Below are positions 1 through 39,451 of a DNA stretch of 64,000 bases, one piece after another. Within the stretch, counting starts at the first letter, position 1, and each line of letters starts with the position of its first letter. The notes under the pieces are model-generated. The model had not been told where the DNA came from. It was given only the letters and a program-made list of their open reading frames with translations, and did no database searches. The translations under genes and the position numbers were made by a program. Source of the stretch: Candidatus Omnitrophota bacterium (lineage in GTDB: Bacteria > Omnitrophota > Gorgyraeia > JAZDFF01); contig JAZDFF010000001.1 of NCBI GenBank assembly GCA_043808095.1, forward strand, positions 94,230 through 158,229, read 5' to 3'.

Positions 1-2
1 AG

Positions 3-803
3 ATTAAAAAAGAGGATTTAGTCTCTCTTGAGGCAAGTTCTTTTCAATTACAAAGGACAAAGAAATTCCATCCCAAGGTAGCCGTAATCCTAAATTTTAC
101 CCCCGACCATTTAAATTACCATAAAGATTTAGAAGAGTATCTTGAGGCGAAAAAAAGGATTTTCTTGAATCAGAAAGAAGACGACTGGGCCATACTGAAT
201 TATCAAGATAAGGTAGTCAGAGATTTGTCCAAAGAGACTAAGGCCAAGGTCCTATTTTTTAATAAGAAATTGTCCCTAAATCCAAATTTTGAGGCAGCCT
301 CTATTACAGGCGAGATATTTGGTGTAAGTAAAAAGGAGTCTAGTGAGATTTTCAGGGATTTTAAGGGGATAGAGCATCGCTTAGAATATATTGGCAGTAT
401 CAAGGATGTAGATTTTATCAATGATTCCAAGGCTACTAATGTAGACTCAACTATCTGGGCCTTAAATAGGATTACAAAACCCATTATCTTGATTGCAGGC
501 GGAAGAGATAAAGGGACGGATTACTCGCCAATTTATGAATTAATCAAGAGCAAGGTGAAACATATGTTTGTAATTGGCGAGGCAAAAGACAAAATCAAAA
601 CCGCTCTAAGTAAAGCGGTAAAAACCGAAGAGGCCGCTTCCCTAAAAGAAGCAATGGAAAAAGGACTGCTTATTGCCCAAAAAGGAGATTCTGTTTTACT
701 TTCTCCGATGTGCGCTAGTTTTGATATGTTTATAAATTACGAAGACAGGGGCGATACCTTTAGAAGAGAATTCTTAGAACTTAAAAAGATTTATGAGGAA
801 TAA
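3..803 (+). CDS. murD: UDP-N-acetylmuramoylalanine--D-glutamate ligase MurD, 5'-truncated at window edge
   Basis: Frame is open from position 3; upstream translation contains VAVILNFTPDHLNYH (Mur ligase motif); C-terminal domain IAGGRDKG; followed by ftsW-murG. Confidence 0.85.
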   Translation: MKKEDLVSLEASSFQLQRTKKFHPKVAVILNFTPDHLNYHKDLEEYLEAKKRIFLNQKEDDWAILNYQDKVVRDLSKETKAKVLFFNKKLSLNPNFEAASITGEIFGVSKKESSEIFRDFKGIEHRLEYIGSIKDVDFINDSKATNVDSTIWALNRITKPIILIAGGRDKGTDYSPIYELIKSKVKHMFVIGEAKDKIKTALSKAVKTEEAASLKEAMEKGLLIAQKGDSVLLSPMCASFDMFINYEDRGDTFRREFLELKKIYEE

Positions 804-1131: not shown

Positions 1132-2223
1132 ATGCGTAATACCCGTATAATTTTATTTATGGTTACGGTTATCCTGATCAATATCGGGATAGTGATGATC
1201 TATAGCGCAAGTAGTATCTATGCCCTAGAAAAATTAGGTGATAGTACTTATTTTTTGAGGCGACAACTTTTATTTATCTTTCTGGGTTTTATTCTGGCTA
1301 TTTTGGTTATGTATTGGGATTATTCCGTTTATCGAAAGTTTGCCAAAATTTCTATTCTTATTTCATTATTACTCTTGGTCCTGGTGAATATCCCGGGGAT
1401 AGGCAGGGAGGTAGGAGGCGCCAGGCGTTGGTTTAGATTATTCGGCTTTAGTTTCCAGCCTTCAGAGTTTGTTTTTTTAAGCCTGATCTTATACATGGCT
1501 GATTTTGTCAGCCGAAATAAAGCAAGGCTCCGGGATTTATTTTTCGGGTTTTTCCCTCCCATGTTAATTTTGGGCGCATTTTGCCTTTTAATCTTAATCC
1601 AGCCAGACTTGGGTAGCTCAGTTGCCCTGGGCATTGTGGGAATGATCATCTTATTTATGGCGGGAGTAAACCCAAAACACCTGGGGGCTATATTATTATC
1701 TGCAGTACCATTACTGTATCTGGTTGTTTTTAATGTCCCTTATCGAAGAGCCAGGATAATGACTTTTCTTAACCCTTGGGTTGACCCGCGGGGAAGCGGT
1801 TTTCAGATTATTCAGTCTCAGATTGCCTTAGGCTCAGGCGGATTATTAGGCAAAGGCCTGGGCAAAAGCGTTCAAAAACTATTTTATCTACCGGCAGCAC
1901 ATACGGATTTTATTTTTTCTATTGCAGGAGAGGAACTCGGTTTGATTGGCACGGCCAGCATTGTAATCCTTTTCATTATTTTTCTTTGGCTGGGGTTTAA
2001 GATTGTTACAAATGCCCGAGATAACTTTGGCAGATTCCTGGCCTTAGGGATTGTATCCGGAATCGGTCTTAAAGCGGTGATTAATATCGGGGTCTCCGCA
2101 GGCTTTTTTCCCACCAAAGGACTTCCTCTTCCATTTATAAGTTATGGTGGGTCGTCTTTAATCTTTGATATGCTGGCAGTGGGATTATTGCTTAATATCT
2201 CCCGCTCAAGCTGCCCTGACTAA
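1132..2223 (+). CDS. ftsW: Peptidoglycan glycosyltransferase FtsW (SEDS family)
   Basis: Multi-TM protein with SEDS motifs (GSSVALG, PxxHTDFIFS) between murD and murG. Confidence 0.85.
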   Translation: MRNTRIILFMVTVILINIGIVMIYSASSIYALEKLGDSTYFLRRQLLFIFLGFILAILVMYWDYSVYRKFAKISILISLLLLVLVNIPGIGREVGGARRWFRLFGFSFQPSEFVFLSLILYMADFVSRNKARLRDLFFGFFPPMLILGAFCLLILIQPDLGSSVALGIVGMIILFMAGVNPKHLGAILLSAVPLLYLVVFNVPYRRARIMTFLNPWVDPRGSGFQIIQSQIALGSGGLLGKGLGKSVQKLFYLPAAHTDFIFSIAGEELGLIGTASIVILFIIFLWLGFKIVTNARDNFGRFLALGIVSGIGLKAVINIGVSAGFFPTKGLPLPFISYGGSSLIFDMLAVGLLLNISRSSCPD

Positions 2224-2236
2224 AAATTATAAAGCA

Positions 2237-3340
2237 ATGAAGATAATCATAGCCACAACCGGTTCTGGTGGTCATCTTAGCCCGGCAATTGCCTTGGCTG
2301 AGGAGTTAAAAAGAAGGTCACCAGACCTGGATTTATATTTTATTGCAAGCGGCCAGCCCTTAACGGAAGGACAACTCAAAGGTAAAGCTTTTAAGATAAT
2401 AGTTTTCCCTGCCTTAAGCCCTAAGAAGAGTTTTGCTTTACAAAACATCATCTTAATAATAAAATTAATAGATATAGCCTTAAGGTCTTTATTTATAATA
2501 ATTAAGATTAGGCCGGATTTATCAATTGGATTTGGCGGTTATATTTCGGGCCCAGTAATTTTGTTTTCACATCTTTTGTCAGTCAGGACCGTTATTCATG
2601 AGCAGAACCTTAAACTTGGCCGAGCCAACAGGATATTGAGTAAATTTGTCGATAATGTCGCTTTAAGTTTTGAAGATTCAGTAGAATTTTTACGCCACCA
2701 AGATAAGGCTTTTGTTTGCGGAAATCCTTTAAGAAAAGATCTCATTAGTTCTTTGACTAGACAAGAGGCCTGTCTAGATATCGGCCTTACGCCAAACAGA
2801 TTTACCGTCTTGGTCACTGGCGGGAGTTTAGGCGCCAGGCACATAAATAAAGAGTTTATTAATCTGTTAAGAGACTGGAAAGACCCTGATTCGATACAGG
2901 TAATACATATCTCGGGAGAATTGGACTTTCAAGACGTGGTATCCGACTATGATACAATAAAGATACCGCATAAGGTATTCAGTCATTTTAGCAAGATGCA
3001 ATATGCTTATAGATGTTCAGACCTTGCTGTTTGTCGCGCTGGAGCAACGACCATAGCAGAACTGGCTTTTTTTGGTTTACCTGCAATATTAATCCCGTAT
3101 CCCTATGCCAGGGGAAACCATCAATTAGAAAATGCAGTTTTGTTAAAAAATTATTCTGCGGCGATCTTGATTGAGGATGATAAACTTGAGGCCGGGGTTT
3201 TAGAGAAACATATCTTAGGCCTGATTAGAGAGCCTAAGGAATTAACCCGGATGTCTCAAAATATCAAAAAATTTGCCAGGCCCGAGGCCGCCAAGGAACT
3301 GGCAGATTTGGTATTTTCTTATTCCCCTTCGCTCCGATGA
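2237..3340 (+). CDS. murG: Undecaprenyldiphospho-muramoylpentapeptide beta-N-acetylglucosaminyltransferase MurG
   Basis: N-terminal MKIIIATTGSGGHLSPAIALAEEL (GT28 G-loop); start placed at internal ATG 2237 rather than ORF-track start 2165. Confidence 0.85.
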   Translation: MKIIIATTGSGGHLSPAIALAEELKRRSPDLDLYFIASGQPLTEGQLKGKAFKIIVFPALSPKKSFALQNIILIIKLIDIALRSLFIIIKIRPDLSIGFGGYISGPVILFSHLLSVRTVIHEQNLKLGRANRILSKFVDNVALSFEDSVEFLRHQDKAFVCGNPLRKDLISSLTRQEACLDIGLTPNRFTVLVTGGSLGARHINKEFINLLRDWKDPDSIQVIHISGELDFQDVVSDYDTIKIPHKVFSHFSKMQYAYRCSDLAVCRAGATTIAELAFFGLPAILIPYPYARGNHQLENAVLLKNYSAAILIEDDKLEAGVLEKHILGLIREPKELTRMSQNIKKFARPEAAKELADLVFSYSPSLR

Positions 3341-3508: not shown

Positions 3509-4315
3509 ATGATGAAATTTAGGCATACCGTCATATTGGTATTAATTTTTTTAGGCATTTTTTTGGGAGAGGTCAGTTATGCGGTATTAGATGATAATTG
3601 GCGAATCACCAAAGGTAATCACTTTATCATATCTTTTCGCCAGGAGGTTCCCGAGAAATTTGTGCTTAAGACCCTTGAGTATGCTGAGAAATACTACCAG
3701 GAGATAACCGAGAATCTCGGGTTCTCGCGGGAAAATTTCTGGTTAGAAGATAACCGCGCCAGGATTTATATCTACAAGGACAGCCAAGAGTATCTTAAAG
3801 CAACCGGCATGCCGGATTGGTCAGCAGGCACTGCAATCGGAAGACATAAGATTATCGAAACCTACGCCTCATCGATTAATTTTTTTGATAACCTTCTTCC
3901 TCACGAATTAGCCCATATAATCTTCAGGGAATTCATCAACCAAGAGCAGAATGTTCCTCTTTGGCTGGACGAGGGAGTCGCACAATATATGGAGAAAACC
4001 GGACGTAGCCACAGCAAAAAGATCATCAAAGATGCCCTGAACGATAATACCTTTTTCGAACTCACCGACTTGGCCAAGATTGACATCCGAACTGAGAAAG
4101 ATGATGCAAGGGTTCATCTTTTTTATGCGGAATCTTTGAGTGTGGTAGATTTTTTAATAAAGGAATTAGCGCCGTATCGGTTCTGCAATTTTTCTAAGGC
4201 CTTAAGGAGAGGCGCCTCTATTGATGATGCTTTAAAGGCTGCCTACCAAGACGCGAGCATAAATAATTTAGATGACCTTGGTAAGGTTTGGAAAAAGTCG
4301 CTTTTGGTCAAATGA
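3509..4315 (+). CDS. Secreted putative zinc metallopeptidase (HExxH, peptidase MA-like)
   Basis: N-terminal signal/TM segment; HELAH followed by downstream LDEGVAQY (gluzincin-like third ligand); sits inside the dcw cluster. Confidence 0.55.
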   Translation: MMKFRHTVILVLIFLGIFLGEVSYAVLDDNWRITKGNHFIISFRQEVPEKFVLKTLEYAEKYYQEITENLGFSRENFWLEDNRARIYIYKDSQEYLKATGMPDWSAGTAIGRHKIIETYASSINFFDNLLPHELAHIIFREFINQEQNVPLWLDEGVAQYMEKTGRSHSKKIIKDALNDNTFFELTDLAKIDIRTEKDDARVHLFYAESLSVVDFLIKELAPYRFCNFSKALRRGASIDDALKAAYQDASINNLDDLGKVWKKSLLVK

Positions 4316-4446: not shown

Positions 4447-5811
4447 ATGAATAAACACATACATTTTATCGGTATCGGCGGAATTGGGATGAGCGGGATC
4501 GCCCAACTTTATCTTGAGAAAGGAGTTGTTGTTAGCGGCTCTGATTTAAAGATGAGTCCGATTACTGAGAAATTAATCTCTCAAGGAGCTAAGATTTATA
4601 TCGGGCATTCTCCGGCAAATATCAATGGCGCTGATACAGTAATTTATTCCTCGGCAATAAAAGACGATAATCCCGAATTCATCGAGGTAGCTAAGCGCAA
4701 TATCACTGTTTTAAAAAGGGCAGAGGCCCTGGCCGGGCTTATGCAGGAAAAAGTTGCTATTACAATTAGCGGCGCCCATGGCAAGACCACTACCACTTCG
4801 ATGATCTCAAGCCTTCTAGAAGAAGCGGGACTAGCTCCGACAGTAGCCAGTGGCGGGATAGTGCGCAATTTCAAGACGAATGCCTGGTCTGGCAGCGGTA
4901 AATACTTTGTGGCTGAGGCAGATGAAAGCGACGGCAGTTTTCTGTATTATCAGCCGACCTATTCGGTTATTACCAATATCGACCGCGAACACCTTGATTA
5001 TTATCATGAGTTTGATTATATTAAAGAGGCATTTCGTGATTTTATGTTAAAGACCAAAGACAATGGCATAATCTTTTATAACGGCGATGACCATAATTTA
5101 AAGGATATCAAAAGGCAGATAGATAAACGCGGTCTTAGTTTTGGCCTTTCTAAATATAATGATGTTTATCCTCGGGGTGTAAAACTAAAAGGATTTTCTA
5201 GTGAATTTAATTGTATCCATAAAGGAAAAAATCTTGGCCAATTTTGTTTAAATATACCCGGGCTACACAATATCTCGAATTCTTTGGTTGTGATTGCCTT
5301 GGGGCTTGAGTTAGGCCTGGCGCCAGATACGATTAGAAAGAGTCTTGGCTCTTATAGAGGGACGCAGAGGAGATTAGAGGTAAAATTGGATTTTAATGAT
5401 ATTAAAGTCATCGATGACTATGCCCATCATCCTACGGAGATAAAGGCGACCCTGGAGGCAGTGAGAAGCCTAAAGCATAATCGGCTGCTGGTTATATTCC
5501 AGCCCCACCGATATAGCCGGTTGAAATTTCTTTTTGATGAGTTTGTTAAAGTGCTGACAAACAGCGAACATCTTATCTTAAGTGATTTATATCCGGCAAG
5601 CGAACCGCCGATTCCCGGGATTACCAGTGAGAATCTTGCGTTTAAGATAAGAGATTGCGGACACCCCGATGTCCGATTTGTGCCTAAAAGCAATCTTTGC
5701 GATTGCATCTTAAGGCAAGTAGGCGCTGGAGATATAGTCCTTTTTATGGGCGCAGGAGATATTGGCCATACTGCTGATGAGCTGGCAAGAAGGATTAAAA
5801 AGAGTAACTAA
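4447..5811 (+). CDS. murC: UDP-N-acetylmuramate--L-alanine ligase MurC
   Basis: IHFIGIGGIGMSGIA N-terminus, GAHGKTTTT P-loop, Mur ligase C-domain. Confidence 0.9.
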   Translation: MNKHIHFIGIGGIGMSGIAQLYLEKGVVVSGSDLKMSPITEKLISQGAKIYIGHSPANINGADTVIYSSAIKDDNPEFIEVAKRNITVLKRAEALAGLMQEKVAITISGAHGKTTTTSMISSLLEEAGLAPTVASGGIVRNFKTNAWSGSGKYFVAEADESDGSFLYYQPTYSVITNIDREHLDYYHEFDYIKEAFRDFMLKTKDNGIIFYNGDDHNLKDIKRQIDKRGLSFGLSKYNDVYPRGVKLKGFSSEFNCIHKGKNLGQFCLNIPGLHNISNSLVVIALGLELGLAPDTIRKSLGSYRGTQRRLEVKLDFNDIKVIDDYAHHPTEIKATLEAVRSLKHNRLLVIFQPHRYSRLKFLFDEFVKVLTNSEHLILSDLYPASEPPIPGITSENLAFKIRDCGHPDVRFVPKSNLCDCILRQVGAGDIVLFMGAGDIGHTADELARRIKKSN

Positions 5812-6685
5812 AGGCAAAATTAGTTTTGGCGAACCGCTAAAATCAAGATGTACCTTCAAAATCGGCGGAACGGCCAAGGTCTGGGTTGAACCCAAAGACA
5901 AAGAGGACTTAAAGATTATATTAAGGTTTTTCACAAAGATAGGCATGCCTGTCTTTGTAATCGGCGGCGGCAGTAATATTTTATTTAATGACGGACTGAT
6001 TGAGGGTATAATTATACATCTGGGTTCTTGCTACTTTAGGAGGATAATTTTTAAAGGCGATTTAGTTAAGGCGGGCTCGGGTGTGAGCTTGGCTAAATTA
6101 ATCCAGAAAGCCAAAGAGGAGAACCTGGGTGGTTGCGAGCATTTATTTGGGATTCCCGGGACAGTGGGCGGTGCGCTGAGTATGAATGCAGGAATCAGTC
6201 TTAACTCTTGCCAATTGGATATCGGCTCGTTAGTTTCCGAGGTAGAGGTTATGGATTATAACGGAAATATCCACATTTTAGAGAAAGAAGATTTAAAATT
6301 TGATTATCGCAGTTCTAATTTAAACCGTTTTGTTATCGTCTCGGCAACCTTGAGATTGAAAAAATCCAGTCCTTTAGAGATAACAAGCGAGATTAGCCGC
6401 ATCAAAGATATGCGAGCTGCTTCCCATGGCTATCCTAAGGCATCAGCAGGCTGCATCTTTAAGAATCCTAAAAGGGGCTTGTCTGCTGGTTTCTTGATTG
6501 AAAGATGCGGACTAAAAGGGGCGCGTGTTGGCGATGCCCAAATTTCTTCCAGTCATGCAAACTTTATCTTAAATGTAGGTAATGCCCGGGCCTCAAATGT
6601 AATTAATCTTATGGCTTTAACGCGAAGACTAGTAAAAAAGAGGTTTAATTTAGATTTGGAGCAGGAGGTAAGGATTGTTGGTTAA
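5762..6685 (+). CDS. murB: UDP-N-acetylenolpyruvoylglucosamine reductase MurB
   Basis: FAD-binding PCMH motifs (KIGGTAKVWVEP, GGGSNILF); start uncertain because it overlaps the murC 3' end. Confidence 0.8.
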   Translation: MAILLMSWQEGLKRVTKGKISFGEPLKSRCTFKIGGTAKVWVEPKDKEDLKIILRFFTKIGMPVFVIGGGSNILFNDGLIEGIIIHLGSCYFRRIIFKGDLVKAGSGVSLAKLIQKAKEENLGGCEHLFGIPGTVGGALSMNAGISLNSCQLDIGSLVSEVEVMDYNGNIHILEKEDLKFDYRSSNLNRFVIVSATLRLKKSSPLEITSEISRIKDMRAASHGYPKASAGCIFKNPKRGLSAGFLIERCGLKGARVGDAQISSSHANFILNVGNARASNVINLMALTRRLVKKRFNLDLEQEVRIVG

Positions 6686-7673
6686 TAAAGCCTTAGTTAA
6701 AAATTTAAGGATAGCAGTGTTAATGGGAGGCAGGTCCAGCGAAAGGGAGATTTCGCTTAAATCCGGTAGGGCGGTTTATCAGACCTTAAAAGACGCGGAC
6801 TGTAAAGTCTGGCCTTTTGATATTACTGAAGAAGACCCTGACAAAATCATATCCGGCCTAAAAGAGATTGACGCGGACCTTGCTTTTATTGCCATGCACG
6901 GCAGTTTTGGCGAAGATGGTACTTTACAGGAGATCCTTGAAAGTGCCGAAATTCCCTATACCGGTTCAGGCCCCCGGGCAAGTCGTCTGGCCATGGACAA
7001 AATTGCCTCAAGAGGGGTTTTTAAGAGACAGAATATTCCTGTTCCAGGTTGCCTGGTTTTCGAAGATAGTTTATTTTCAAAAATAGATTTAGATGAATTA
7101 GATTTTTTGGGTCTACCCCTTGTGGTCAAGCCAGCAGGAGCAGGTTCGAGTATCGGAGTGAGTTTTGTTATGAGAAAGGAAGAATTGCTTCCTGCGGTTG
7201 AATTGGCCTTCAGTCATGGCCGGCGCATTATTATTGAAGAATGTTTAAAAGGAAGAGAGATTACTGTAGGTATTTTGAGTAATGAACCACTTCCTGTAAT
7301 TGAGGTTGTCCCTAAACTTGAATTCTTCAATTTCCAGGCAAAATATACTCCCGGCTTGACAGACTATATTGTCCCGGCAAAACTCGATCCCCGAATCGCA
7401 AAAAACGCCCAGGACATCGCGCTCTTAGCCCATGAATCTCTGGGGTGCCGGACATTCTCACGCGTAGATATGATCTTAAAGGAAGATACCCCTTATGTGT
7501 TAGAGATAAATACAATACCCGGCTTTACCCAGACGAGTTTACTACCCAAGGCCGCGGCCTTTAAAAATATAAGTTTTTTAGATTTATGCCTTAAGGTTAT
7601 TAGTTTAAGCGTTGTCCCTCATTTTATTAAAAAAAATGAAAAAGAAAGCATTAACCTTAAATCCGGTTTCTAA
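6675..7673 (+). CDS. ddl: D-alanine--D-alanine ligase Ddl
   Basis: ATP-grasp; N-terminal IAVLMGGRSSEREISLKSG; dcw context. Confidence 0.85.
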   Translation: MLVNKALVKNLRIAVLMGGRSSEREISLKSGRAVYQTLKDADCKVWPFDITEEDPDKIISGLKEIDADLAFIAMHGSFGEDGTLQEILESAEIPYTGSGPRASRLAMDKIASRGVFKRQNIPVPGCLVFEDSLFSKIDLDELDFLGLPLVVKPAGAGSSIGVSFVMRKEELLPAVELAFSHGRRIIIEECLKGREITVGILSNEPLPVIEVVPKLEFFNFQAKYTPGLTDYIVPAKLDPRIAKNAQDIALLAHESLGCRTFSRVDMILKEDTPYVLEINTIPGFTQTSLLPKAAAFKNISFLDLCLKVISLSVVPHFIKKNEKESINLKSGF

Positions 7674-8385
7674 AAAAACAGCAATTTTTATTTCCACAAT
7701 TCTTTTATTGGTAATTGTGGCAATTTTCTCTTTCAGGCTGATAAAAGGGCGTCCCTATTTTAGGCTTTCAAGGATTTCCAGTAATTATGATCTGGGATTA
7801 GGCGAATTTAACCAGTTAAAAGGCACAAATATATTCTCCCTTAATTTAAAATGGATGCATGAGAGGATAATCTCTAAGGATTCTTATATCAAGACTGTCA
7901 AAGTAATTAGAAAGCCACCTAATGAGGTTTATATTGAAGTACAAAAAAGGATTCCTCTGGCCAGAACCGATTTAGGGGCCAACTTCTTAGTGGATACTGA
8001 TGGCGCCTTGATTTATGCCAAGAGAAATTTAGAGGAACAAGACCTGCCGTTTTTGGTGGGATTGAAGAATCGCATCCCTTATCCTACTAGAGGCAAGGTC
8101 TATAGTAATGTTGATGAGGTAAAAATAGCCGTAACCTTACTCAATGAATTTAGAAAGAAGCCCATTTTTAAGAAATTTAGAATACAAGAGGTAAATGTTT
8201 TGAATCTTTCTAACACAGTCTTTTTTTTAGAGGGCGGTCCCCAGGTAAAAATCGGGGATAATTCGTTGAAAGAAAGGCTTGCGATGCTGGAAGTATTTCT
8301 TAGGCAATTTAACGAAGACGTCAGTAAGATAAATTACATAGACCTTCGTTTTAAAGAACCAGTAGTTAAACTTAATGAGAGATAA
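7612..8385 (+). CDS. ftsQ: Cell division protein FtsQ/DivIB (POTRA)
   Basis: Single N-terminal TM helix then POTRA-like domain; immediately precedes ftsA. Confidence 0.7.
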   Translation: MSLILLKKMKKKALTLNPVSKKTAIFISTILLLVIVAIFSFRLIKGRPYFRLSRISSNYDLGLGEFNQLKGTNIFSLNLKWMHERIISKDSYIKTVKVIRKPPNEVYIEVQKRIPLARTDLGANFLVDTDGALIYAKRNLEEQDLPFLVGLKNRIPYPTRGKVYSNVDEVKIAVTLLNEFRKKPIFKKFRIQEVNVLNLSNTVFFLEGGPQVKIGDNSLKERLAMLEVFLRQFNEDVSKINYIDLRFKEPVVKLNER

Positions 8386-9580
8386 ATTTATTTGCGGTCT
8401 GGATTTAGGGACTAATAAAATAGCTGCTGCCCTGGCTAAGATAGATAAAACGAAGCGCTTTAGTATAATAGCTCTTGAGGCGCAAAAAATAGACCCGCCT
8501 GGCTCTGATGTCAGCCCAGGTTCTATCCAAAATTTATTAAGTTCGATTAAGCACAAGCATAATGTTGAGATTGAAGACCTGATTGTAAATCTAAGCGGGG
8601 GGTTTATCTCTAGCAAATACAGCCGCGCCGCTATTCCTTTATCGGATAGGGGTGCCAGAATTATCAATAGAAGGATAGTTAACCGTTTGAGTTTTCAGGC
8701 CCGGAATTTATGCCTTGATTTAGAAGAGGGCCTCCTGCATGAATTTCCTCAGGAATACATCATTGATTCTAAGGCCAGACTTGATAATCCCCTGGGTAGG
8801 TGCGCCCGACGCCTTGAGGTTGAAACCCTATTAATCTCAACCCAGCTAAAAGATATGCAAAATACCACCCGACTTGTTAGTCGGGCAGGATATGAGATCA
8901 AGGATTTTGTTTTTTCAGGTCTTGCCTCGGGCTGGGCAGTTTGTGACAAGGAGGATATGGTAGCCGGCTGCGCCATAATCGATATTGGCGCTGGTTTGAC
9001 TGAAATTGCTATTTTTAAAGATTCAATATTGAGAGCCGCGCATATTATTTCTTTCGGCGGAAATGATTTGACCAATGCGCTCGTTGAGGCCTTGAAAATC
9101 CCTTTTAGCGTGGCTGAAGAGATAAAGACTTCCTATGCGCTGGTATTACCTAAGGATGCTGACGAAGAGAAAGAGATTATTATTAAGAAGAATTCTGGCT
9201 TTAATTCGATTAAACACAGTCAAGTGGTGAAGGCCATCGGGCCCAAGATAGATAATTTAGCCAAGAACATAAAAAAGAAGATTGCTAGCTCTAGTTTTAG
9301 AGACAAATTGGAAAAAGGCGTAATCATTACAGGTGGCATGAGCCTTCTGGATGGATTTTTAGAGATGATGGAGTTAAAACTCGAGATGCCGGTTAAACTG
9401 GGAATTCCCAAAGATGTCGAGGTAAGGGAATTTAAGGCGCCTGTATTTTCCACTAGTGTAGGATTGGTGCGCTATGGCAGAGAGAGATATCTGGAGAGGG
9501 TCTCTAAGTTAGAAAACGCAGCGTCATGGATTGACCAAATAATCGCACCGCTTAAATTTGTCTACCAGGAGTATTTTTAG
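8375..9580 (+). CDS. ftsA: Cell division protein FtsA
   Basis: Actin-like ATPase (ICGLDLGTNKIAAALA, DIGAGLTEIAIF, ITGGMSLLDGF). Confidence 0.9.
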   Translation: MRDKFICGLDLGTNKIAAALAKIDKTKRFSIIALEAQKIDPPGSDVSPGSIQNLLSSIKHKHNVEIEDLIVNLSGGFISSKYSRAAIPLSDRGARIINRRIVNRLSFQARNLCLDLEEGLLHEFPQEYIIDSKARLDNPLGRCARRLEVETLLISTQLKDMQNTTRLVSRAGYEIKDFVFSGLASGWAVCDKEDMVAGCAIIDIGAGLTEIAIFKDSILRAAHIISFGGNDLTNALVEALKIPFSVAEEIKTSYALVLPKDADEEKEIIIKKNSGFNSIKHSQVVKAIGPKIDNLAKNIKKKIASSSFRDKLEKGVIITGGMSLLDGFLEMMELKLEMPVKLGIPKDVEVREFKAPVFSTSVGLVRYGRERYLERVSKLENAASWIDQIIAPLKFVYQEYF

Positions 9581-9589
9581 GAAATGATT

Positions 9590-9710
9590 ACAGTGATTTT
9601 GAAAAAAGATTACAGTGATATTATTGCAATGATATTTTAATCTGTGTAATCAATTTTTTCCCGCTTTGCGGGATCCCGCTAGAATATTTTTTATTTGTGC
9701 GGGATAATCA
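9590..9710. repeat. Intergenic repeat modules (GATTACAGTGAT x2; GGGATCCCGC palindrome)
   Basis: GATTACAGTGAT direct repeat at about 9594 and 9613; CCCGCTTTGCGGGATCCCGC resembles 32470-32510 and 41165-41200. Confidence 0.65.
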
Positions 9711-9731
9711 CAGGAATCTTATTTTATTAAA

Positions 9732-10616
9732 ATGATAATTATTCCCGCTATAGATTTAAAAAATGGTAAGGTCGTCAGGCTTTATAAAGGCGACTTCAAT
9801 AAAGTCAGCGAGTATTCCAATGACCCTGTCAGCGTGGCTTTATCCTGGCAAGGGCTTGGCGCCAGCTTAATCCATATTGTCGATTTAGAAGGGGCATTAA
9901 CCGGAGAACCCCAAAATAAAGCCATTATTAAGAAGATAATAAAGAGCCTTAAGATTGAAACTGAAGTAAGCGGCGGTTTTAGGACCAAGGAATTGATTGA
10001 GGAATTTATCCAGGCAGGTGCCACTCGTATCATCCTCGGCTCCAAAGTTCAGGAAGACCTGTCATTTTTAGAAGACATCTCAAAGGTTTATTCAAAAAGA
10101 CTGGCCATTAGCCTGGATGCGAAGTATCTAAAAGAGGATAAAAGCGGTTTAGTTTTAAATCTTTCTATTAAAGGGTGGCTTGAGGATAAAGAGGTTCCTT
10201 TAGAAGCCTTGCTTAAGGAGATTTATTCGCTGGGAATTCGCTTTATCAATTATACGGATGTCTCCCGCGACGGGACATTGGAAGGGATAGATCTTAATTC
10301 CGTAACCAAGATTATAGAAATCGTAAATAAATTTACCCCGTTAGAGAAAACCACTTCGACAATACTTCAAAGCGGACGCAACCCTCTAAGGCCAAAAGTG
10401 GTTAAAAACAAGCGTCAGCAGATACCGTTAGAGATTGAAAAATCTCTAACAGGGTTTAAAGGTTTTAATTTGATTGTTTCGGGAGGAGTTTCATCGATAG
10501 AAGATATTAAGAAAATCGCCAGATTTAAAGATTTCTACGGCCTAATTATAGGTAAGGCCCTCTATGAGGGCAGGGTGGATTTTAAAGAGGCAAATAAGAT
10601 TGCTCTGGGAAAATAA
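9732..10616 (+). CDS. hisA: HisA (ProFAR isomerase) carrying a roughly 45-residue insertion
   Basis: MIIIPAIDLKNGKVVRL and SGG/ALYEG motifs; extra segment NKFTPLEK...FKGF between the DGT motif and the final SGG strand. Confidence 0.8.
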   Translation: MIIIPAIDLKNGKVVRLYKGDFNKVSEYSNDPVSVALSWQGLGASLIHIVDLEGALTGEPQNKAIIKKIIKSLKIETEVSGGFRTKELIEEFIQAGATRIILGSKVQEDLSFLEDISKVYSKRLAISLDAKYLKEDKSGLVLNLSIKGWLEDKEVPLEALLKEIYSLGIRFINYTDVSRDGTLEGIDLNSVTKIIEIVNKFTPLEKTTSTILQSGRNPLRPKVVKNKRQQIPLEIEKSLTGFKGFNLIVSGGVSSIEDIKKIARFKDFYGLIIGKALYEGRVDFKEANKIALGK

Positions 10617-10787: not shown

Positions 10788-11543
10788 ATGTTAACCAAAC
10801 GTATAATCCCATGTCTTGATGTTAAAGACGGCAGGGTGGTCAAAGGCATAAAGTTCCTGAATTTACGCGATGCCGGCGATCCGCCTGTTGTTGCCGCGGT
10901 CTACGATAAACAAGGGGCAGATGAGCTAGTTTTTCTGGATATTACTGCCAGCCTTGAGAAGAGGTCTATTCTTTTAAAGGTAGTTAAAAAAACAGCCCAG
11001 ACGGTGTTCATGCCCCTCACTGTCGGCGGCGGCATAAGGGGTATCTTGGATATACGTACATTATTATCTTCGGGGGCTGACAAGGTCTCCATAAATACTG
11101 CCGCAGTCCTTTGTCCTAAGTTTATTCAAGAGGCAGCAAGAAGGTTCGGTAGTCAATGTATCGTAGTAGCTATTGATGCCAAGAGAAAAAATAAAGGCTG
11201 GCAGGTTTATATTAACGGCGGCCACACCCAAACCAGACTAGATGCCGTAGAATGGGCTAAAAAGGCACAGGCGCTTGGCGCTGGAGAGATTTTGTTGACA
11301 AGCATGGATTATGATGGTACAAAAGATGGTTATGATATCAAGCTTACCAGGCGAGTTACAACGGCGGTAAACATTCCAGTGATCGCCTCCGGAGGTGCAG
11401 GCAAGCCTGAACATTTATACGAGGTATTAACTAAAGGCGGTGCGGATGCGGCATTGGCTGCCTCTATTTTTCACTACGGAGAATATTCGGTAGCCGAGAT
11501 CAAGAGTTATCTTAAGAAAAGAGGTGTTTACGTAAGAGGTTAA
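10788..11543 (+). CDS. hisF: Imidazole glycerol phosphate synthase cyclase subunit HisF
   Basis: [21 protein letters not shown] motifs. Confidence 0.9.
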
Positions 11544-11545: not shown

Positions 11546-11887
11546 ATGGCCAAAACGATTAAATTAAAATTTAATAAAGACAGGCTTATCCCGGTGATTA
11601 TCCAGGATTACAAGACCAAAGAGGTATTAATGCTTGCCTATATGAATAGAGAGTCGCTTAAAAGGACCTTGCGGCTTGGCAAGACCTGTTTCTGGTCTCG
11701 TTCCAGGAAGAAATACTGGGTAAAAGGAGAGACCTCCGGACATTTCCAATTTGTTAAAGGTATTTCCTATGACTGCGACCAGGATGCCTTATTGATTAAG
11801 GTAAGACAGGTAGGCGTAGCCTGTCATACAGGTAATAGGTCATGCTTTTATAGGAAATTAAAACTAAGTAACCAGCCCCGAATGTAG
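11546..11887 (+). CDS. hisI: Phosphoribosyl-AMP cyclohydrolase HisI
   Basis: 113 aa; GLIPVIIQD-like N-terminus, CDxDALL and C-terminal Cys cluster. Confidence 0.8.
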
Positions 11888-16718: not shown

Positions 16719-18644
16719 ATGTTTAAGTCATTAAAACTCTACCGAAACCAAATAATCGAATTAGAAAGTGTTGTTACACAGCTAGACCAACTCGGCTATA
16801 GGCGCCAAAATCAGACTCAGGAAGAAGGCGACTTTAGCCTGCGCGGGGATGTCCTGGATATATTTCCTGCCACTTTCGAATTTCCTATAAGGATTGACCT
16901 TGACGTTGAAAGTATTAATGCGATTAGAAGTTTTAGCACGAGCGACGCAAAACCAATTTTAGAGCACGAGGCAGTAATAATTTTACCCAAAAAGATTTCA
17001 AGCGGTCTTTCTAAGCTTCATTTGGATTTTAAAGAAGAGGTTCCGATTGACAATTTCCTCGATTTAGCAATCGGCGATTATGTAGTACACGTAAAGCACG
17101 GTATCGGCAGGTTTTTGGGGATGAATAAAATTAATACCAAAGACGGCCCAAAAGACCACTTAATTGTTGAATATGCCGGTAATGACAGGTTATTTGTGCC
17201 GGTAGATTCTATGCACCTGGTGCAGAAGTATATCAGTTTTGAAAGGGGCAGGCCGAAATTATATAAATTAGGCTCCGGAGAGTGGCTCCGGGTCAAGAAC
17301 AGGGCAAGAAAAGGGATCTTTCTTTATGCAGCCGAGCTCCTAAGGATGCAGGCGGCAAGAGAGAGTCTTTCGGGATTTAGTTTCTCCCCCGATACTGACT
17401 GGCAAAAAGAATATGAAAAGAATTTTCCTTACGTTGAGACTCCCGACCAGGCCAAGGCTACTGTTATGGTTAAGCAAGATATGGAGTCGTCTCAACCCAT
17501 GGATAGGCTTCTTTGCGGAGATGTCGGTTACGGAAAGACCGAGGTAGCCATGCGTGCTGCCTTTAAGGCGGTAATGGATAACAAACAAGTGGCAATCCTT
17601 GTTCCCACGACGATCTTGGCTGAGCAGCATTATTATAATTTCTCCAGTCGCCTTAAGGACTTTCCTATTAATGTCGAGATGCTCAGCCGTTTTAAGTCTC
17701 ATGCTGAACAAAAGAATATCATAAAGATGCTGGCAGCGGGGCTCGTTGACATCGTAATCGGAACCCACCGTTTAATTTCAAACGACATCAAATTCAAAGA
17801 CTTAGGGCTAGTAATCATTGATGAGGAGCAGCGTTTTGGGGTAAGGGCAAAAGAAAAACTTAAGAATTTGCGACTCTTAGTGGATGTCCTGACTTTGACT
17901 GCAACGCCAATTCCGCGTACACTTTATATGTCTTTAATGGGCGCTAAAGATATGTCGGTTATAAATACTGCCCCCCAAAACCGCCTGCCCATTGAGACCT
18001 ATGTCGCTGAATATAGCGATGCCCTCGTGCGCCAGGCGATATTGCGGGAACATCGCCGTAGCGGCCAGGTATTTTTTGTGCATAATCGTGTCCAAAGAAT
18101 TGAAAAGATTTTAAAAAGACTATCTAGGCTTTTACCAAGCACTATAAAGATCGGTCTGGCCCATGGGCAAATGGATTCGCGCAGCCTTGAAAAGATAATG
18201 TTTTCTTTTTTAAAAGGAAACCTTGACGTTTTGGTTTCTACTTCTATAATTGAATCAGGGATAGATGTACCTAATGCCAATACCCTTATTGTTGATAATG
18301 CCCAGGATTTTGGTTTGGCGGACTTACATCAGTTGCGGGGCAGGGTGGGCAGGTTCAATGTGAAGGCCTTTGCCTATTTTCTTACGCTTAATATTAGCCT
18401 CTTATCAACCGAGTCCCAAAAACGCCTTGAAGTAATCAAAAAATATTCCCAGTTAGGAGCAGGTTTTAAGATTGCCTTTGAGGATTTAGGAATCCGCGGG
18501 GCAGGAAACCTTTTGGGAGTACAACAGCATGGTTTTATCTCATCGGTAGGTTTTGATCTTTATTGCCGCCTGCTTCGCGAGACCATCAGTAATCTAAAAG
18601 GGCGTCACAAAAGTTCCGCCTTTAGGCTGGAACGATTTTTGTGA
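16719..18644 (+). CDS. mfd: Mfd-like transcription-repair coupling factor, core only (lacks UvrB-homology N-terminus and C-terminal D7)
   Basis: RNAP-interacting motif DYVVHVKHGIGRF, helicase motifs GDVGYGKTEVA, DEEQRFG, QLRGRVGR; 641 aa versus about 1150 aa for canonical Mfd. Confidence 0.8.
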   Translation: MFKSLKLYRNQIIELESVVTQLDQLGYRRQNQTQEEGDFSLRGDVLDIFPATFEFPIRIDLDVESINAIRSFSTSDAKPILEHEAVIILPKKISSGLSKLHLDFKEEVPIDNFLDLAIGDYVVHVKHGIGRFLGMNKINTKDGPKDHLIVEYAGNDRLFVPVDSMHLVQKYISFERGRPKLYKLGSGEWLRVKNRARKGIFLYAAELLRMQAARESLSGFSFSPDTDWQKEYEKNFPYVETPDQAKATVMVKQDMESSQPMDRLLCGDVGYGKTEVAMRAAFKAVMDNKQVAILVPTTILAEQHYYNFSSRLKDFPINVEMLSRFKSHAEQKNIIKMLAAGLVDIVIGTHRLISNDIKFKDLGLVIIDEEQRFGVRAKEKLKNLRLLVDVLTLTATPIPRTLYMSLMGAKDMSVINTAPQNRLPIETYVAEYSDALVRQAILREHRRSGQVFFVHNRVQRIEKILKRLSRLLPSTIKIGLAHGQMDSRSLEKIMFSFLKGNLDVLVSTSIIESGIDVPNANTLIVDNAQDFGLADLHQLRGRVGRFNVKAFAYFLTLNISLLSTESQKRLEVIKKYSQLGAGFKIAFEDLGIRGAGNLLGVQQHGFISSVGFDLYCRLLRETISNLKGRHKSSAFRLERFL

Positions 18645-31932: not shown

Positions 31933-32442
31933 ATGGGTTTACGAGATAAGAGAAAAAACATTGAAGAGAAACTTTTAGATGTAGACGCCTCCATGTCTGG
32001 GACACTTTCTTTTCGGGATCCGGTTAACATGCGCATAAATGGCAAATTTGAAGGCACGCTTGAGGTAAAGGGAAATTTAACTATTGGAGATACTGCTGTG
32101 GTCGAAGCCCATATTGTCGGAGATAATATTACTATTTCCGGAAAAGTAAAAGGGGATATCATTGCCAAACAGAGATTGACTCTTACTTCCACGGCCGTTG
32201 TTAACGGTGATGTTAGGGCCCCAAAATTAAATATTATTGAGGGGGCAATCTTACAGGGTAGATGCATTATGTTGGGCGATGTGCTCGATAGCGAAGAACT
32301 GGCGAGATACCTTGAGATTGATCTCGACTCTATCTTAGATTGGGCAAATTCCGGCAAGGTACCCGCTTTTAAGGACAATAACGAATGGAGGTTTGAGCGC
32401 AAGAAAATAGACGAATGGATATCTAAAGGAGCACTTAAATAA
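31933..32442 (+). CDS. Bactofilin domain protein with C-terminal excisionase-type HTH
   Basis: Beta-helical bactofilin repeats ending GDVRAPKLNIIEGAILQGRCIM; C-terminal LDSEELARYLEIDLDSILDWANSGKVPAFKDNNEWRFERKKIDEWI fits the Xis/HTH_17 pattern. Confidence 0.75.
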   Translation: MGLRDKRKNIEEKLLDVDASMSGTLSFRDPVNMRINGKFEGTLEVKGNLTIGDTAVVEAHIVGDNITISGKVKGDIIAKQRLTLTSTAVVNGDVRAPKLNIIEGAILQGRCIMLGDVLDSEELARYLEIDLDSILDWANSGKVPAFKDNNEWRFERKKIDEWISKGALK

Positions 32443-32444: not shown

Positions 32445-32600
32445 TCTAGATTACAATGATTATCCCGCGCAATAATAAATATTCAACGGGATCCCGCAAA
32501 GCGGGGAAAGTTGGATTACACAGATGATGCAGAGAGGCCTTTGCCTTTAATCTGTGAAATCTTTTTTAAAATCCCTGCCTGTCGACAGGCAGGTGCGCAA
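32445..32600. repeat. Palindromic repeat cluster (GGGATCCCGCAAAGCGGG, ATCTGTG and CCTGCC palindrome modules)
   Basis: Modules shared with 9650-9710, 41165-41200, 3371-3396. Confidence 0.7.
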
Positions 32601-32617: not shown

Positions 32618-32935
32618 ATGGCGGAAAAACTATTAACGGTCAGGGAAGCAGCACAATTCTTGGGCATTTCAGAAAAAGAGGTAATAGATCTTTCGCAGGA
32701 AGGAATTATCCCTGCATATAGAATTGCTGGTACCCATTTAAGATTTAGGCAGGATCAATTACAAGATATTCGTTCCAAGATAAAAGACTCTCTTAAAGAG
32801 TCGCACAAAAAGATTATTTTCCAGGATAACAGCTATTCTTCGGGAGAGAGGTTTTTTGACTTCTTCTATTTTAATGATTTTTATATCGTGGCATTAGTAG
32901 TAATTATTACAATCTTATTTTTATTTTTTAGATGA
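32618..32935 (+). CDS. Excisionase-family HTH DNA-binding protein with C-terminal hydrophobic anchor
   Basis: LLTVREAAQFLGISEKEVIDLSQEGIIPAYRIAGTHLRFRQDQL (HTH_17 pattern); C-terminal FYIVALVVIITILFLFF. Confidence 0.65.
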   Translation: MAEKLLTVREAAQFLGISEKEVIDLSQEGIIPAYRIAGTHLRFRQDQLQDIRSKIKDSLKESHKKIIFQDNSYSSGERFFDFFYFNDFYIVALVVIITILFLFFR

Positions 32936-33798: not shown

Positions 33799-34221
33799 AT
33801 GAGTAACAAACGAATTACTTTAAATGAAGCCATAAAATTTCACGGGCATCTGGGTCCATATCTGGTTCTAGGGCTTTTGGCAGGAAACCTGGCGTTTGAA
33901 AAAATAGGCTTTAAGAAATATTTCGGCATTAGAATAAAAGTCTGGGGCGCAAGCAAGAAACCAAAATCCTGCCTTATTGACGGTCTGCAGCTTTCAAGTG
34001 GTGCCACTTACGGCAAAGGCAATATCGAGAAACTAAATAGCTCAAAAATAAAGATTGATTTTATTAATGAAGAGAATAACAAAAAGATTTCCTTTGTATT
34101 CAAAAAACCAATAATCAAATTATTGCAAAAAGTTAAGACACATGCGGAATCTGAAATTTTAGCGAAGGAACTATATAAAACCAATCTTTCTGAAATATTT
34201 AATATAGCATCAATAAACTAA
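33799..34221 (+). CDS. FmdE-like domain protein
   Basis: FHGHLGPYLVLGLLAG resembles the FmdE HGHxCPG core (Cys replaced by Gly); 140 aa. Confidence 0.45.
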   Translation: MSNKRITLNEAIKFHGHLGPYLVLGLLAGNLAFEKIGFKKYFGIRIKVWGASKKPKSCLIDGLQLSSGATYGKGNIEKLNSSKIKIDFINEENNKKISFVFKKPIIKLLQKVKTHAESEILAKELYKTNLSEIFNIASIN

Positions 34222-34223
34222 AA

Positions 34224-35555
34224 ATGGCCCTTTCAGGTCTAGATATCTATAAGGTTTTACCCAAAACAAACTGCAGGGACTGCGGATTTCCGACGTGTCT
34301 TGCCTTTGCCATGCAGCTTGCCAAGAAGGCAGTGAGCCTGGATAAGTGTCCGCATTTAACCGCAGAGGCAAAAGGAAAACTTGAACAAGCAGCGTTACCG
34401 CCAATTCGCTTAGCCAAAATTGGGAAAGATGACCGCGTCCTTGAAATAGGGAACGAATCCGTAATGTTCCGTCATGAGGAAAAATTCCATCATCCCTGCG
34501 GCATAGGATTTATCTTAGAGGATAGTTTATCCGACGCAGAGCTTGATAAGAACATGAATTCCATAAAATCCTTAAGGTTTGAGCGTATAGGCCAGGAGCT
34601 TAAACCGGATCTTGTTGCCATTTCCCAGACCAAATCCGATAAAGAAAGATTCTTAAAAATTCTAAGGGCGGTTCTGGAAAAACTGGATTTAAATCCAGTA
34701 TTAATGAGTAGCGATGAACAGACGTTAAAAGAAGCCTTAGAGCTAAGCAAAGATAAAAAACCATTGATTTATGCAGCGACCAATTCCAATTATAAGATGA
34801 TGACAGGCTTTTCTAAGAATTACGGCTTGCCGCTTGTAGTTAAGTCAGATAATCTTGATGATTTGTCGCAATTAGTCAAGTCCATAAATGATTTGGGCGT
34901 GGAAGATTTAATCCTTGATCCGGGAACAAAGGGCCTGGGTCAGCGGATTTCCGATCTAACTCAGATTCGGCGCCTAGCATTAAAGAAAAGTTTTAGACAA
35001 CTAGGATATCCGACTATTGCGGTCATATCGGAAAGAGACCCCTATAAAGAAGTAATTCAGGTAAGTAGTCTTTTGGCTAAATATGCCAGTATTATTTTAA
35101 TGAAGGGACTAGAACCCTGGCAGGCTTTAAGTATCTTTACGCTAAGACAAAATATTTATTCTGACCCGCAAAAGCCTCTACAAGTTGAACCCAAGGTTTA
35201 TCCCATTGGAAAAGTTAGCGATATTTCGCCGCTTTTAGTGACCACTAATTTCTCCCTGAGTTACTACACGGTGCTTTCAGAGGTTGAGGCAAGCAAGGTT
35301 CCTTCCTATATTATGAGCGTAGATACCGAAGGCATGTCGGTGTTGACCGCCTGGGCAGCAGAGAAATTTACGGCCGATAAGGTTACAGAGGCAATCAATA
35401 AAAATAATCTTGGTTCTTTGGTTTCGCATAAGAAGGTAATCATCCCGGGCTATGTGGCAGTAATGAGTGGGGATCTTGAGGATAAAAGCGGTTGGCAGAT
35501 AGTTGTTGGTCCGCGCGAGGCCTCCGGGATTCCGAGTTTCTTGAAGAAATTATAG
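34224..35555 (+). CDS. acsC: Corrinoid iron-sulfur protein large subunit AcsC
   Basis: N-terminal 4Fe-4S motif CRDCGFPTC...C, TIM-barrel and C-terminal corrinoid-binding region, 443 aa; adjacent to acsD and acsE. Confidence 0.8.
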   Translation: MALSGLDIYKVLPKTNCRDCGFPTCLAFAMQLAKKAVSLDKCPHLTAEAKGKLEQAALPPIRLAKIGKDDRVLEIGNESVMFRHEEKFHHPCGIGFILEDSLSDAELDKNMNSIKSLRFERIGQELKPDLVAISQTKSDKERFLKILRAVLEKLDLNPVLMSSDEQTLKEALELSKDKKPLIYAATNSNYKMMTGFSKNYGLPLVVKSDNLDDLSQLVKSINDLGVEDLILDPGTKGLGQRISDLTQIRRLALKKSFRQLGYPTIAVISERDPYKEVIQVSSLLAKYASIILMKGLEPWQALSIFTLRQNIYSDPQKPLQVEPKVYPIGKVSDISPLLVTTNFSLSYYTVLSEVEASKVPSYIMSVDTEGMSVLTAWAAEKFTADKVTEAINKNNLGSLVSHKKVIIPGYVAVMSGDLEDKSGWQIVVGPREASGIPSFLKKL

Positions 35556-35659
35556 ACCGCTAAAACGCAAAAATTCCGCTAAAGCGCAAAATTTAATTGA
35601 ATAATTTCTTTGCGATTTTGCGCCTGCATGCCGTCAGTTAGGGGTTTTGCGCCTTTGCG

Positions 35660-37621
35660 GTGTTAAATTGTTTAAAAGTTAGAAAAGTGATGGAAAAGTA
35701 TAAGATAACATTTTATCCGGATAATAAGACCATCGAGGTTGAGAAAGGTAAAACCATACTTTCTGCAGCGATCTCTGCCGGGGTTTACATTAACTCAGGT
35801 TGCGGCGGAGACGGTGTCTGCGGAAGGTGTAAAATCATTGTTAAGAAGGGCGAAGTAAGTTCTCAACCGACTGGCAGGCTTAGCCTGGATGAGAGAAGGC
35901 GGCAAGTCTATCTTTCCTGTTTGACTACCGTCCAGAGTGATTTAGAGGTCGAGGTTTTACCCGAATCAAGACTGGATTTTGATAAATTATCCAGCGAAGA
36001 ACTGGATTTAAGATTAAAAGGCCTTTATTCTGCCTCAGAGGCAGTTGAACAAATAAGCACACTTAAAGAACGGGATTTATTTATTCACTCGCCTTTAGCC
36101 ACCAAATTATATTTGGAAATACCCAAACCGACGTTAGACGATAAAATCAGCGATTTGGAAAGAATCTATCGCTCGATTCGCAAGATTCAGGATATCCCCA
36201 TTATGCAGACTGGTCTTTCTAATATCAGGTGCCTGGGTGAATTATTGCGCGCATCTGATTGGAAGGTCACCGTAACCCTGGGAAAAAGAAACGGGACCAC
36301 TGAGATAGTCTTGATTGAGCCACAAGATACCTCGAAAAAGAATTTCGGGGCGTGTTTTGATATCGGCACCACAACTATTTCCGGCCAGCTCGTGGATTTA
36401 AATAGCAAGAAGGTGCTTGGAACCCGGGCCACCTATAACAAGCAAGCCAGTTTTGGTAGCGACGTAATCAGCAGGATAATCTTTGCCCAGAAACAAGATG
36501 GTCTTGAAAAATTACATCATGCAGTTATTGACAGTATGAATCAGATGATTCTAGAGATGATTAGAGAGCATGGCCTTGACCTTAATGATGTAAATTGTGC
36601 TTTATGCGCAGGAAATACCACGATGATTCATCTCTTGTTACGTGTTGACCCGACCTACATTAGAAGAGAGCCCTATATACCGACGGCTAATTTTATCCCG
36701 GTGATTAGGGCGGCTGAGGCCGGCATAAAGATTAATCCCAGAGGTTTGCTTGCCTGCGTCCCGGGGGTTTCTAGTTACGTGGGAGGAGATGTTGTTTCCG
36801 GGGTTTTAGCCTGCAGTCTGGATAGAGAAAAAGACCTTTGTATATTAATTGATATCGGTACTAATGGCGAGATCGTTTTAGGAAACCGGGAATGGCTTAT
36901 ATCCTGCTCTGCCTCGGCAGGCCCGGCCTTTGAAGGAAGCGGCATAACTTCAGGCACCAGGGCTACAAAAGGGGCAATCCAGAAAGTTAAGATAGATTCT
37001 GCTCAAGGCAATGTAAACTTTACGACTATAACTGGTGCTCTGCCTATCGGAATTTGCGGTTCAGGTTATATTGATTTATTGGCAGAATTTTTAAAAGCCG
37101 GCCTTATTGATAGACAAGGCAAATTCATAACCTCTTCTAAATTTAAGGCTATCCGCGACGGCGAATTTGGCAAGGAATTTGTTTTAGTGCCTAAGAATGA
37201 AAGTAATTTAAAGTCTGATATTGTGATTACTGAAGCGGATATTGAAAATTTAAAAAGGGCAAAGGCGGCAATATTTTCCGCTACGAGTAGTTTAGCTAAA
37301 CACATGGGGATCGAGCTTTCTAAGATAAATAAGTTTTTTATTGCCGGCGGGTTCGGCACTTATTTAGATATTGATAATGCGGTAAGAATCGGGCTCCTGC
37401 CGGATCTGCCGCGTGAAAAATTTAGCTTTGTGGGAAATAGCTCGTTGTTCGGCGCAAGAGAAATCCTTTTTTCTTCCCAGGCTTTTAGTAAGGCAAAAGA
37501 GATTGCCGGGAAAATGACCTATTATGAATTATCCGTTGAGCCGGATTATATGGAAGAATATATGGCGGCTTTATTTTTCCCGCATACGAATTTGAGTAAG
37601 TTTCCGAGCGTGAAGGCATAA
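35660..37621 (+). CDS. Reductive activator of CFeSP (RACo-like; 2Fe-2S ferredoxin plus ASKHA ATPase)
   Basis: N-terminal plant-type ferredoxin motif CGGDGVCGRCK; C-terminal ASKHA domain; true start may be internal MEKYKITF at 35690. Confidence 0.75.
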   Translation: MLNCLKVRKVMEKYKITFYPDNKTIEVEKGKTILSAAISAGVYINSGCGGDGVCGRCKIIVKKGEVSSQPTGRLSLDERRRQVYLSCLTTVQSDLEVEVLPESRLDFDKLSSEELDLRLKGLYSASEAVEQISTLKERDLFIHSPLATKLYLEIPKPTLDDKISDLERIYRSIRKIQDIPIMQTGLSNIRCLGELLRASDWKVTVTLGKRNGTTEIVLIEPQDTSKKNFGACFDIGTTTISGQLVDLNSKKVLGTRATYNKQASFGSDVISRIIFAQKQDGLEKLHHAVIDSMNQMILEMIREHGLDLNDVNCALCAGNTTMIHLLLRVDPTYIRREPYIPTANFIPVIRAAEAGIKINPRGLLACVPGVSSYVGGDVVSGVLACSLDREKDLCILIDIGTNGEIVLGNREWLISCSASAGPAFEGSGITSGTRATKGAIQKVKIDSAQGNVNFTTITGALPIGICGSGYIDLLAEFLKAGLIDRQGKFITSSKFKAIRDGEFGKEFVLVPKNESNLKSDIVITEADIENLKRAKAAIFSATSSLAKHMGIELSKINKFFIAGGFGTYLDIDNAVRIGLLPDLPREKFSFVGNSSLFGAREILFSSQAFSKAKEIAGKMTYYELSVEPDYMEEYMAALFFPHTNLSKFPSVKA

Positions 37622-37627
37622 TTAACA

Positions 37628-38389: not shown

Positions 38390-38393
38390 AAAA

Positions 38394-39446: not shown

Positions 39447-39451
39447 ATAAA

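Follow-up and report, generated by a model that had tools for sequence, protein, structure and literature searches.

FtsZ is near-universal in bacteria, and FtsA is viewed chiefly as the protein that tethers it to the membrane. A 64,000-nucleotide stretch of DNA from a Candidatus Omnitrophota bacterium (contig JAZDFF010000001.1, positions 94,230 to 158,229 of the forward strand; the whole of this stretch is hereafter called the window) carries a division/cell-wall (dcw) gene cluster that ends at ftsA and lacks ftsZ. As seen from the open reading frame (ORF) listing and Pfam scans, the genes murD, ftsW, murG, murC, murB, ddl, ftsQ and ftsA are collinear and all co-directional (Table 1), whereas the place directly after ftsA, where ftsZ would be expected in a dcw cluster, is followed by a HisA-like gene. 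A preliminary description of this DNA had called the gene order canonical, which is true of the succession from murD to ftsA but passes over one extra gene, encoding a Peptidase_MA_2 protein, that splits murG and murC. Its central statement, that the cluster stops at ftsA and that ftsZ is absent downstream, is borne out by three kinds of search in the window: the FtsZ proteins of E. coli and B. subtilis, as tblastn queries, returned chance matches only (E ≥ 2), a small FtsZ hidden Markov model run without filters (--max) gave no match, and no tubulin/FtsZ Pfam family was matched by any ORF of at least 110 amino acids.

The absence of ftsZ beside ftsA extends to related loci. Altogether, 88 related contig stretches with an ftsA homologue were fetched, approx. 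85 of which are of Omnitrophota type. With an alignment of Omnitrophota FtsAs as the query, a scan in which each GTDB species was represented by one genome gave 80 of the loci (L005-L084), which are labelled Omnitrophota/Omnitrophica or bear generic names of the Planctomycetes-Verrucomicrobia-Chlamydiae (PVC) group. Together with four loci fetched earlier, they make up a search set of 84 loci (1.37 Mb including the window), in which neither tblastn (E ≤ 1e-5) nor hmmsearch --max (E ≤ 10) found an ftsZ near ftsA (within approx. 10 kb); tblastn likewise found none in L086, a locus added later. The same queries detected ftsZ adjoining the 3' end of ftsA in a non-Omnitrophota metagenome contig that served as the positive control (L087; E 1e-70 to 1e-76), and thus the search method works.

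What follows ftsA in these loci may also bear the trace of a lost gene. In 47 loci, ftsA is followed by yggS/ylmE-proC-PNP-ileS, often across gaps of just 41-80 bp. In Firmicutes, ylmE and ileS are located 3' of ftsZ, and this arrangement therefore looks, as far as gene order can tell, like a clean excision of ftsZ. The neighbours of ftsA in the remaining loci are varied, for example response regulators or kinases, and in L005 and L006, the closest genome-level relatives of the window, a radical-SAM gene comes after ftsA. A junction between ftsA and a hisA-like gene, whose conservation the preliminary description had proposed to check, is shared by the window, by L001/L085 (57% FtsA identity) and by L086 (59%; hisF is next), the latter being independent metagenome contigs from other samples. 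However, it is confined to the narrow lineage of the window, and as a phylum-wide feature it was rejected, given the radical-SAM gene of L005 and L006.

The preliminary description of a repeat-filled spacer of approx. 150 bp followed by hisA was accurate in length (151 bp) and in the HisA-like identity of the next gene, but the repeats amount to one copy of a dispersed intergenic element. In the spacer, GATTACAGTGAT is repeated in direct orientation (9586 and 9608), recurs inverted at 9640-9651 and recurs in part at 9706-9718; in addition, two hairpins can be drawn, CCCGC(9660)-GCGGG(9672) and CCCGC(9675)-GCGGG(9703). The motif GATTACASWGAT has six matches in the window, in two clusters (9586-9651 and 32449-32561), a number that none of 100 shuffles reached; the second cluster has the same CCCGC hairpins, and a related element lies 3' of ftsA in L086, at 810-915. 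The spacer repeat is a small dispersed intergenic element and no remnant of ftsZ. Built of GATTACA(C/G)(A/T)GAT direct and inverted copies and of paired CCCGC...GCGGG hairpins, it resembles repetitive extragenic palindromic (REP) elements or miniature inverted-repeat transposable elements (MITEs). A search of the spacer against Rfam gave no family at gathering score, no canonical intrinsic terminator was matched in it, and promoter-like matches were at chance level; accordingly, its identification as a known RNA or terminator was rejected. One might guess that the hairpins serve in transcript termination or stabilisation.

The FtsA protein of the window is an FtsA by sequence and by modelled fold. 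By sequence it matches FtsA structures in the PDB at E 2.6e-41, and both its FtsA and its SHS2_FTSA Pfam domains score above the gathering threshold. An AlphaFold model (predicted local distance difference test score, pLDDT, 85.4; predicted template modelling score, pTM, 0.85) has the FtsA fold with subdomains 1C and 2B kept; its template modelling (TM) score is 0.80-0.87 to FtsA structures, as against 0.55-0.65 to PilM and approx. 0.5 to MreB. As a putative membrane-targeting amphipathic helix, the model has a C-terminal helix (385-400) of low pLDDT after a linker, and the ...KFVYQEYF tail is kept across the phylum and resembles the E. coli ...WLRKEF. Solved FtsAs, namely E. coli 7q6d, Vibrio maritimus 7q6f/7q6i (with FtsN) and T. 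maritima 4a2a (with FtsZ peptide), resemble the model in their full-length fold (TM 0.76-0.87), SHS2 1C domain and C-terminal helix after a flexible linker. They differ from it at three positions of the FtsZ-tail pocket, D242, R300 and E303 in E. coli numbering; the window FtsA has A235, K291 and N294 there, and across the phylum these positions are unconstrained.

These three positions fall in the site that accepts the FtsZ C-terminal peptide in E. coli FtsA (residues 234-245 and 294-304, in subdomain 2B). For their analysis, 80 ordinary and 80 Omnitrophota FtsAs were aligned in E. coli numbering; the ordinary set was picked by rank from a protein search, with the caveat that P0064, which belongs to it, clusters with Omnitrophota in the FtsA tree. 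In ordinary FtsA, conservation reaches 90% or more in approximately 49 columns, 25 of which are kept in at least 80% of Omnitrophota FtsAs. Among these strongly conserved columns, D242, R300 and E303 rank first, third and fourth in loss of constraint: D242 falls from 99% in ordinary FtsA to 4% in Omnitrophota (entropy 3.1 bits), R300 from 99% to 7% (2.9 bits) and E303 from 96% to 19% (2.9 bits). The canonical pocket for the FtsZ tail is therefore conserved neither in the window FtsA nor across Omnitrophota FtsAs. Moreover, the relative with 57% identity has S, R and R where the window has A, K and N, which argues that the pocket, as read from the alignment, is relaxed rather than re-fixed, and such relaxation is what would be expected from loss of the FtsZ ligand. 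The protein is otherwise under clear constraint: 24 columns of the Omnitrophota alignment are invariant, among them a C-terminal motif specific to the phylum, and several residues conserved in it differ from ordinary FtsA. The loss of pocket constraint is a modest new observation.

The nucleotide-binding site tells a different story for the window and for its phylum. Among the 80 Omnitrophota FtsAs, E. coli G214 is replaced by D in 76% and G337 by R in 60%, and the window FtsA is unaltered at both positions. The altered motifs suggest that ATP binding may have been changed or lost in most Omnitrophota FtsAs.

Assignment of the window organism to Candidatus Omnitrophota, a PVC phylum, is made from a single-gene (FtsA) tree, the NCBI label and two shared derived characters. 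The window FtsA is identical to MFH1201353.1, which is entered at NCBI as 'MAG: cell division protein FtsA [Candidatus Omnitrophota bacterium]' (MAG, metagenome-assembled genome) on a 159,674-bp contig, and among protein-search matches 3 to 37 (30-37% identity), all those with a named source are labelled Omnitrophota or Omnitrophica. Neighbour-joining places the window FtsA, together with its relative of 57% identity, within the clade of 80 Omnitrophota species-representative FtsAs. The two shared characters are the C-terminal ...K(E/D)xYQEYF motif, common to the window FtsA and the FtsAs of the phylum, and the MA-peptidase gene between murG and murC, which is found in the window and, among 63 Omnitrophota loci with murG and murC both present, in 41 (for example L002). 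This gene is an unusual, phylum-typical addition to the dcw cluster and may have a role in the cell wall.

The lack of ftsZ in this phylum has been reported before. Pende et al. 2021 (PMC8178401) placed Omnitrophica among the FtsZ-less PVC phyla, and in their table FtsA occurs without FtsZ in three of the four genomes that are still classed as Omnitrophota. The sole FtsZ-positive entry in that paper is 'Omnitrophica bacterium OLB16', which NCBI taxonomy now places in Candidatus Hinthialibacterota; the doubt that Rivas-Marin et al. 2016 had expressed is settled by this reclassification. Seymour et al. 2023 (PMC10066038) dealt with 421 Omnitrophota genomes from 276 species; according to its Supplementary Note 1, Omnitrophota are without ftsZ, bar one occurrence that resembles archaeal sequence, and they also lack ftsY (the signal recognition particle receptor) and ribosomal protein L30, the absence of ftsY being described there as unique to the phylum. 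A table of the same paper gives MreBCD KEGG entries for at least one entry. In the supplements of the 2025 iScience paper, Omnitrophota have no rows. Thus, the absence of ftsZ across Omnitrophota is already published, mostly in supplements, and the window is a divergent new example of it.

Taken together, these observations make it probable that ftsZ has truly been lost in the phylum, with ftsA left as the last gene of the division cluster and its product retained in a function independent of FtsZ. Within this scenario, ftsZ would have disappeared from the 3' end of an ancestral dcw cluster, and probably from the genome too; the cluster end at ftsA would then have become a rearrangement breakpoint, and in the window lineage a his operon (hisA-like, hisF, hisI) would have been joined after ftsA across the repeat-bearing spacer. 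FtsA itself has been retained as an intact actin-like protein, with the 1C domain and the conserved tail and without the conserved FtsZ-pocket residues. Division would be FtsZ-independent, and membrane-bound FtsA, possibly together with MreB, could provide a cytoplasmic scaffold or activator for the retained FtsQ/FtsW/FtsI septal peptidoglycan machinery. A stronger version of this proposal, in which membrane-anchored FtsA filaments are the primary cytoplasmic organiser of an FtsA-only, peptidoglycan-based divisome and position and activate FtsQ/FtsW/FtsI, has, in our estimation, a little less than an even chance of being correct. Of the two options named in the preliminary description (ftsZ encoded elsewhere, or a lineage that divides without FtsZ), the second is favoured by the published absence in the phylum, by the lack of a nearby ftsZ in the Omnitrophota ftsA loci and by the decay of the pocket; as a whole, the interpretation given there can be regarded as partly supported.

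The main rival is a simple split of the cluster, in which a canonical ftsZ lies elsewhere in the genome, outside the window, and division is ordinary. It draws on the fact that approx. 64 kb were examined of a genome likely larger than 1 Mb, on the canonical ATP-binding glycines and intact fold of the window FtsA, and on one 2025 paper that groups Omnitrophota with phyla retaining division-cluster genes. However, two independent published surveys have no ftsZ in Omnitrophota, ftsZ is near ftsA in none of approx. 85 loci, and the pocket residues are unconstrained even when the window is compared with its 57% relative (A/S, K/R and N/R); a split is thus unlikely. Replacement of FtsZ by a highly divergent tubulin-like or an unrelated polymer, encoded elsewhere and tethered through a remodelled 2B pocket or the invariant YQEYF tail, would account for the evident constraint on FtsA, with its 24 invariant columns, and for the Omnitrophota-conserved residues that differ from ordinary FtsA. 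Nonetheless, no candidate was found near ftsA in the 1.37 Mb, nor in the window by Pfam, and the variability of the pocket positions points to relaxation and not to a new specific ligand, so that such a replacement has a slim chance at best. As a dispersed repeat element sits in the spacer, one could also imagine an assembly or binning artefact, with ftsA and hisA joined chimerically at the repeat and ftsZ lost in assembly; the recurrence of the same junction on two independent contigs (L001/L085 and L086) rules out a chimeric assembly, and this explanation is hardly credible and effectively refuted.

Several points weigh against the loss of ftsZ with retention of FtsA, or against parts of it. 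Genome-wide absence of ftsZ in this particular organism is probable, on the strength of phylum-level literature and indirect evidence, with 64 kb of its own genome examined, and absences based on MAGs may stem from incompleteness. The window lineage is divergent, its FtsA being at most 39% identical to that of any GTDB species representative; it keeps the canonical ATP-site glycines, unlike most Omnitrophota, and might be a less derived lineage. The scaffold role proposed for FtsA is one that we infer. A 2025 survey calls the division-cluster genes of Omnitrophota 'highly conserved' and does not single out ftsZ. With regard to the pocket, D242, R300 and E303 are reported to contact FtsZ directly, through salt bridges; in the literature consulted, the residue ranges of the site alone were confirmed, and nothing relevant was found for individual FtsZ-contact residues such as R300/E303.

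Comparison with known systems shows how the Omnitrophota cluster differs from both textbook cases of FtsZ-less bacteria, Planctomycetes and Chlamydiae, which the preliminary description had cited as parallels. The parallel holds insofar as all are FtsZ-less PVC phyla, but those two also lost ftsA, whereas Omnitrophota kept it; the joint loss of ftsA typical of Planctomycetota and Chlamydiota is thus not seen in the window, where ftsA is present and conserved. Chlamydiota, in which septal peptidoglycan synthesis is organised by MreB/RodZ, resemble Omnitrophota in having kept precursor genes and FtsQ/FtsW/FtsI-type proteins in the absence of FtsZ. They have lost FtsA, whereas the window keeps it in a conserved form, with the translational coupling of its gene to ftsQ still in place. 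Planctomycetota share with the window lineage the missing ftsZ and the erosion of the division cluster at the 3' end, but they have lost ftsA and ftsB and, in many orders, mur genes and ftsW, whereas the window cluster, ftsZ apart, is complete over murD to ftsA. The canonical ftsQ-ftsA-ftsZ cluster (E. coli, B. subtilis and, as a local example, L087) shares with the window the order from murD to ftsA and the ftsQ/ftsA overlap; it differs in having ftsZ and in having no MA-clan peptidase gene between murG and murC, and it differs from most Omnitrophota in that their ftsA abuts yggS/ylmE...ileS.

Omnitrophota, PVC bacteria of very small size, present a case in which an entire phylum has kept peptidoglycan synthesis, FtsQ, FtsW and FtsA and is missing FtsZ. 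In the two textbook phyla without FtsZ, FtsA was lost as well. The core absence of ftsZ is already known. Within this context, the decay of the pocket, set against the conservation of the remainder of FtsA, offers a testable hypothesis about FtsZ-independent roles of FtsA, as well as a sequence signature for spotting FtsA proteins that have no FtsZ partner. If FtsA-only division is true, Omnitrophota would offer the first natural example of FtsA functioning without FtsZ and a natural experiment on which functions of FtsA lie downstream of Z-ring tethering.

Table 1. Features of the dcw cluster and its 3' flank (window positions)
Feature	Position	Strand	Remarks
murD, 3' part	1..803	+	Mur_ligase_C match; frame 3 open 3-803, runs off the left edge of the window
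ftsW (SEDS family)	1132..2223	+	PF01098, E 1.9e-111
murG	2165..3340	+	PF03033 and PF04101
MA-clan metallopeptidase, Peptidase_MA_2	3509..4315	+	PF13485, E 8.5e-21; between murG and murC
murC	4447..5811	+	Mur ligase N, M and C domains
murB	5762..6685	+	PF01565 and PF02873
ddl	6675..7673	+	PF07478 and PF01820
ftsQ	7612..8385	+	PF03799 and PF08478; 11-bp overlap with ftsA start
ftsA, 401 aa, MFH1201353.1	8375..9580	+	PF14450, 97 bits; PF02491 (SHS2_FTSA), 45.7 bits
Spacer, 151 bp, at the usual place of ftsZ	9581..9731	.	one copy of dispersed intergenic repeat
HisA-like TIM-barrel gene, 294 aa, MFH1201354.1	9732..10616	+	PF00977, E 7e-61; first gene after ftsA
hisF	10788..11543	+	PF00977, E 1.4e-84
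hisI (phosphoribosyl-AMP cyclohydrolase, PRA-CH)	11546..11887	+	PF01502

Further features of the window are of more local interest. The HisA-like protein (9732-10616), which NCBI names merely 'HisA/HisF-related TIM barrel protein', has an insertion of approx. 41 residues (roughly 200-245) relative to a 253-residue orthologue in L086. The genes 3' of hisI are trpE, rpsP, yajC and secDF, followed by more housekeeping genes. An Mfd-like ORF at 16719-18644 has UvrB_inter, CarD_TRCF_RID, DEAD and Helicase_C domains and, at 641 residues, is short for a transcription-repair coupling factor. The second cluster of the spacer repeat lies 3' of an ORF (31933-32442) in which a bactofilin polymer-forming domain is fused to an HTH_17 DNA-binding domain, and a small helix-turn-helix (HTH)-like ORF is also found there, at approx. 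32620-32935. All Pfam-matching ORFs of the window (1-64000) are on the + strand and the GC skew is positive throughout, an extreme co-orientation over 64 kb. The window also holds Wood-Ljungdahl/acetyl-CoA synthase genes (FmdE, two CdhD, RACo, a CooC-like ATPase and a pterin-binding protein), a patatin phospholipase with a cyclic nucleotide (cNMP)-binding domain, and an AbiEi/AbiEii toxin-antitoxin pair, the coordinates of the three taken jointly being 33799-40240, 55172-57187 and 57456-58893.

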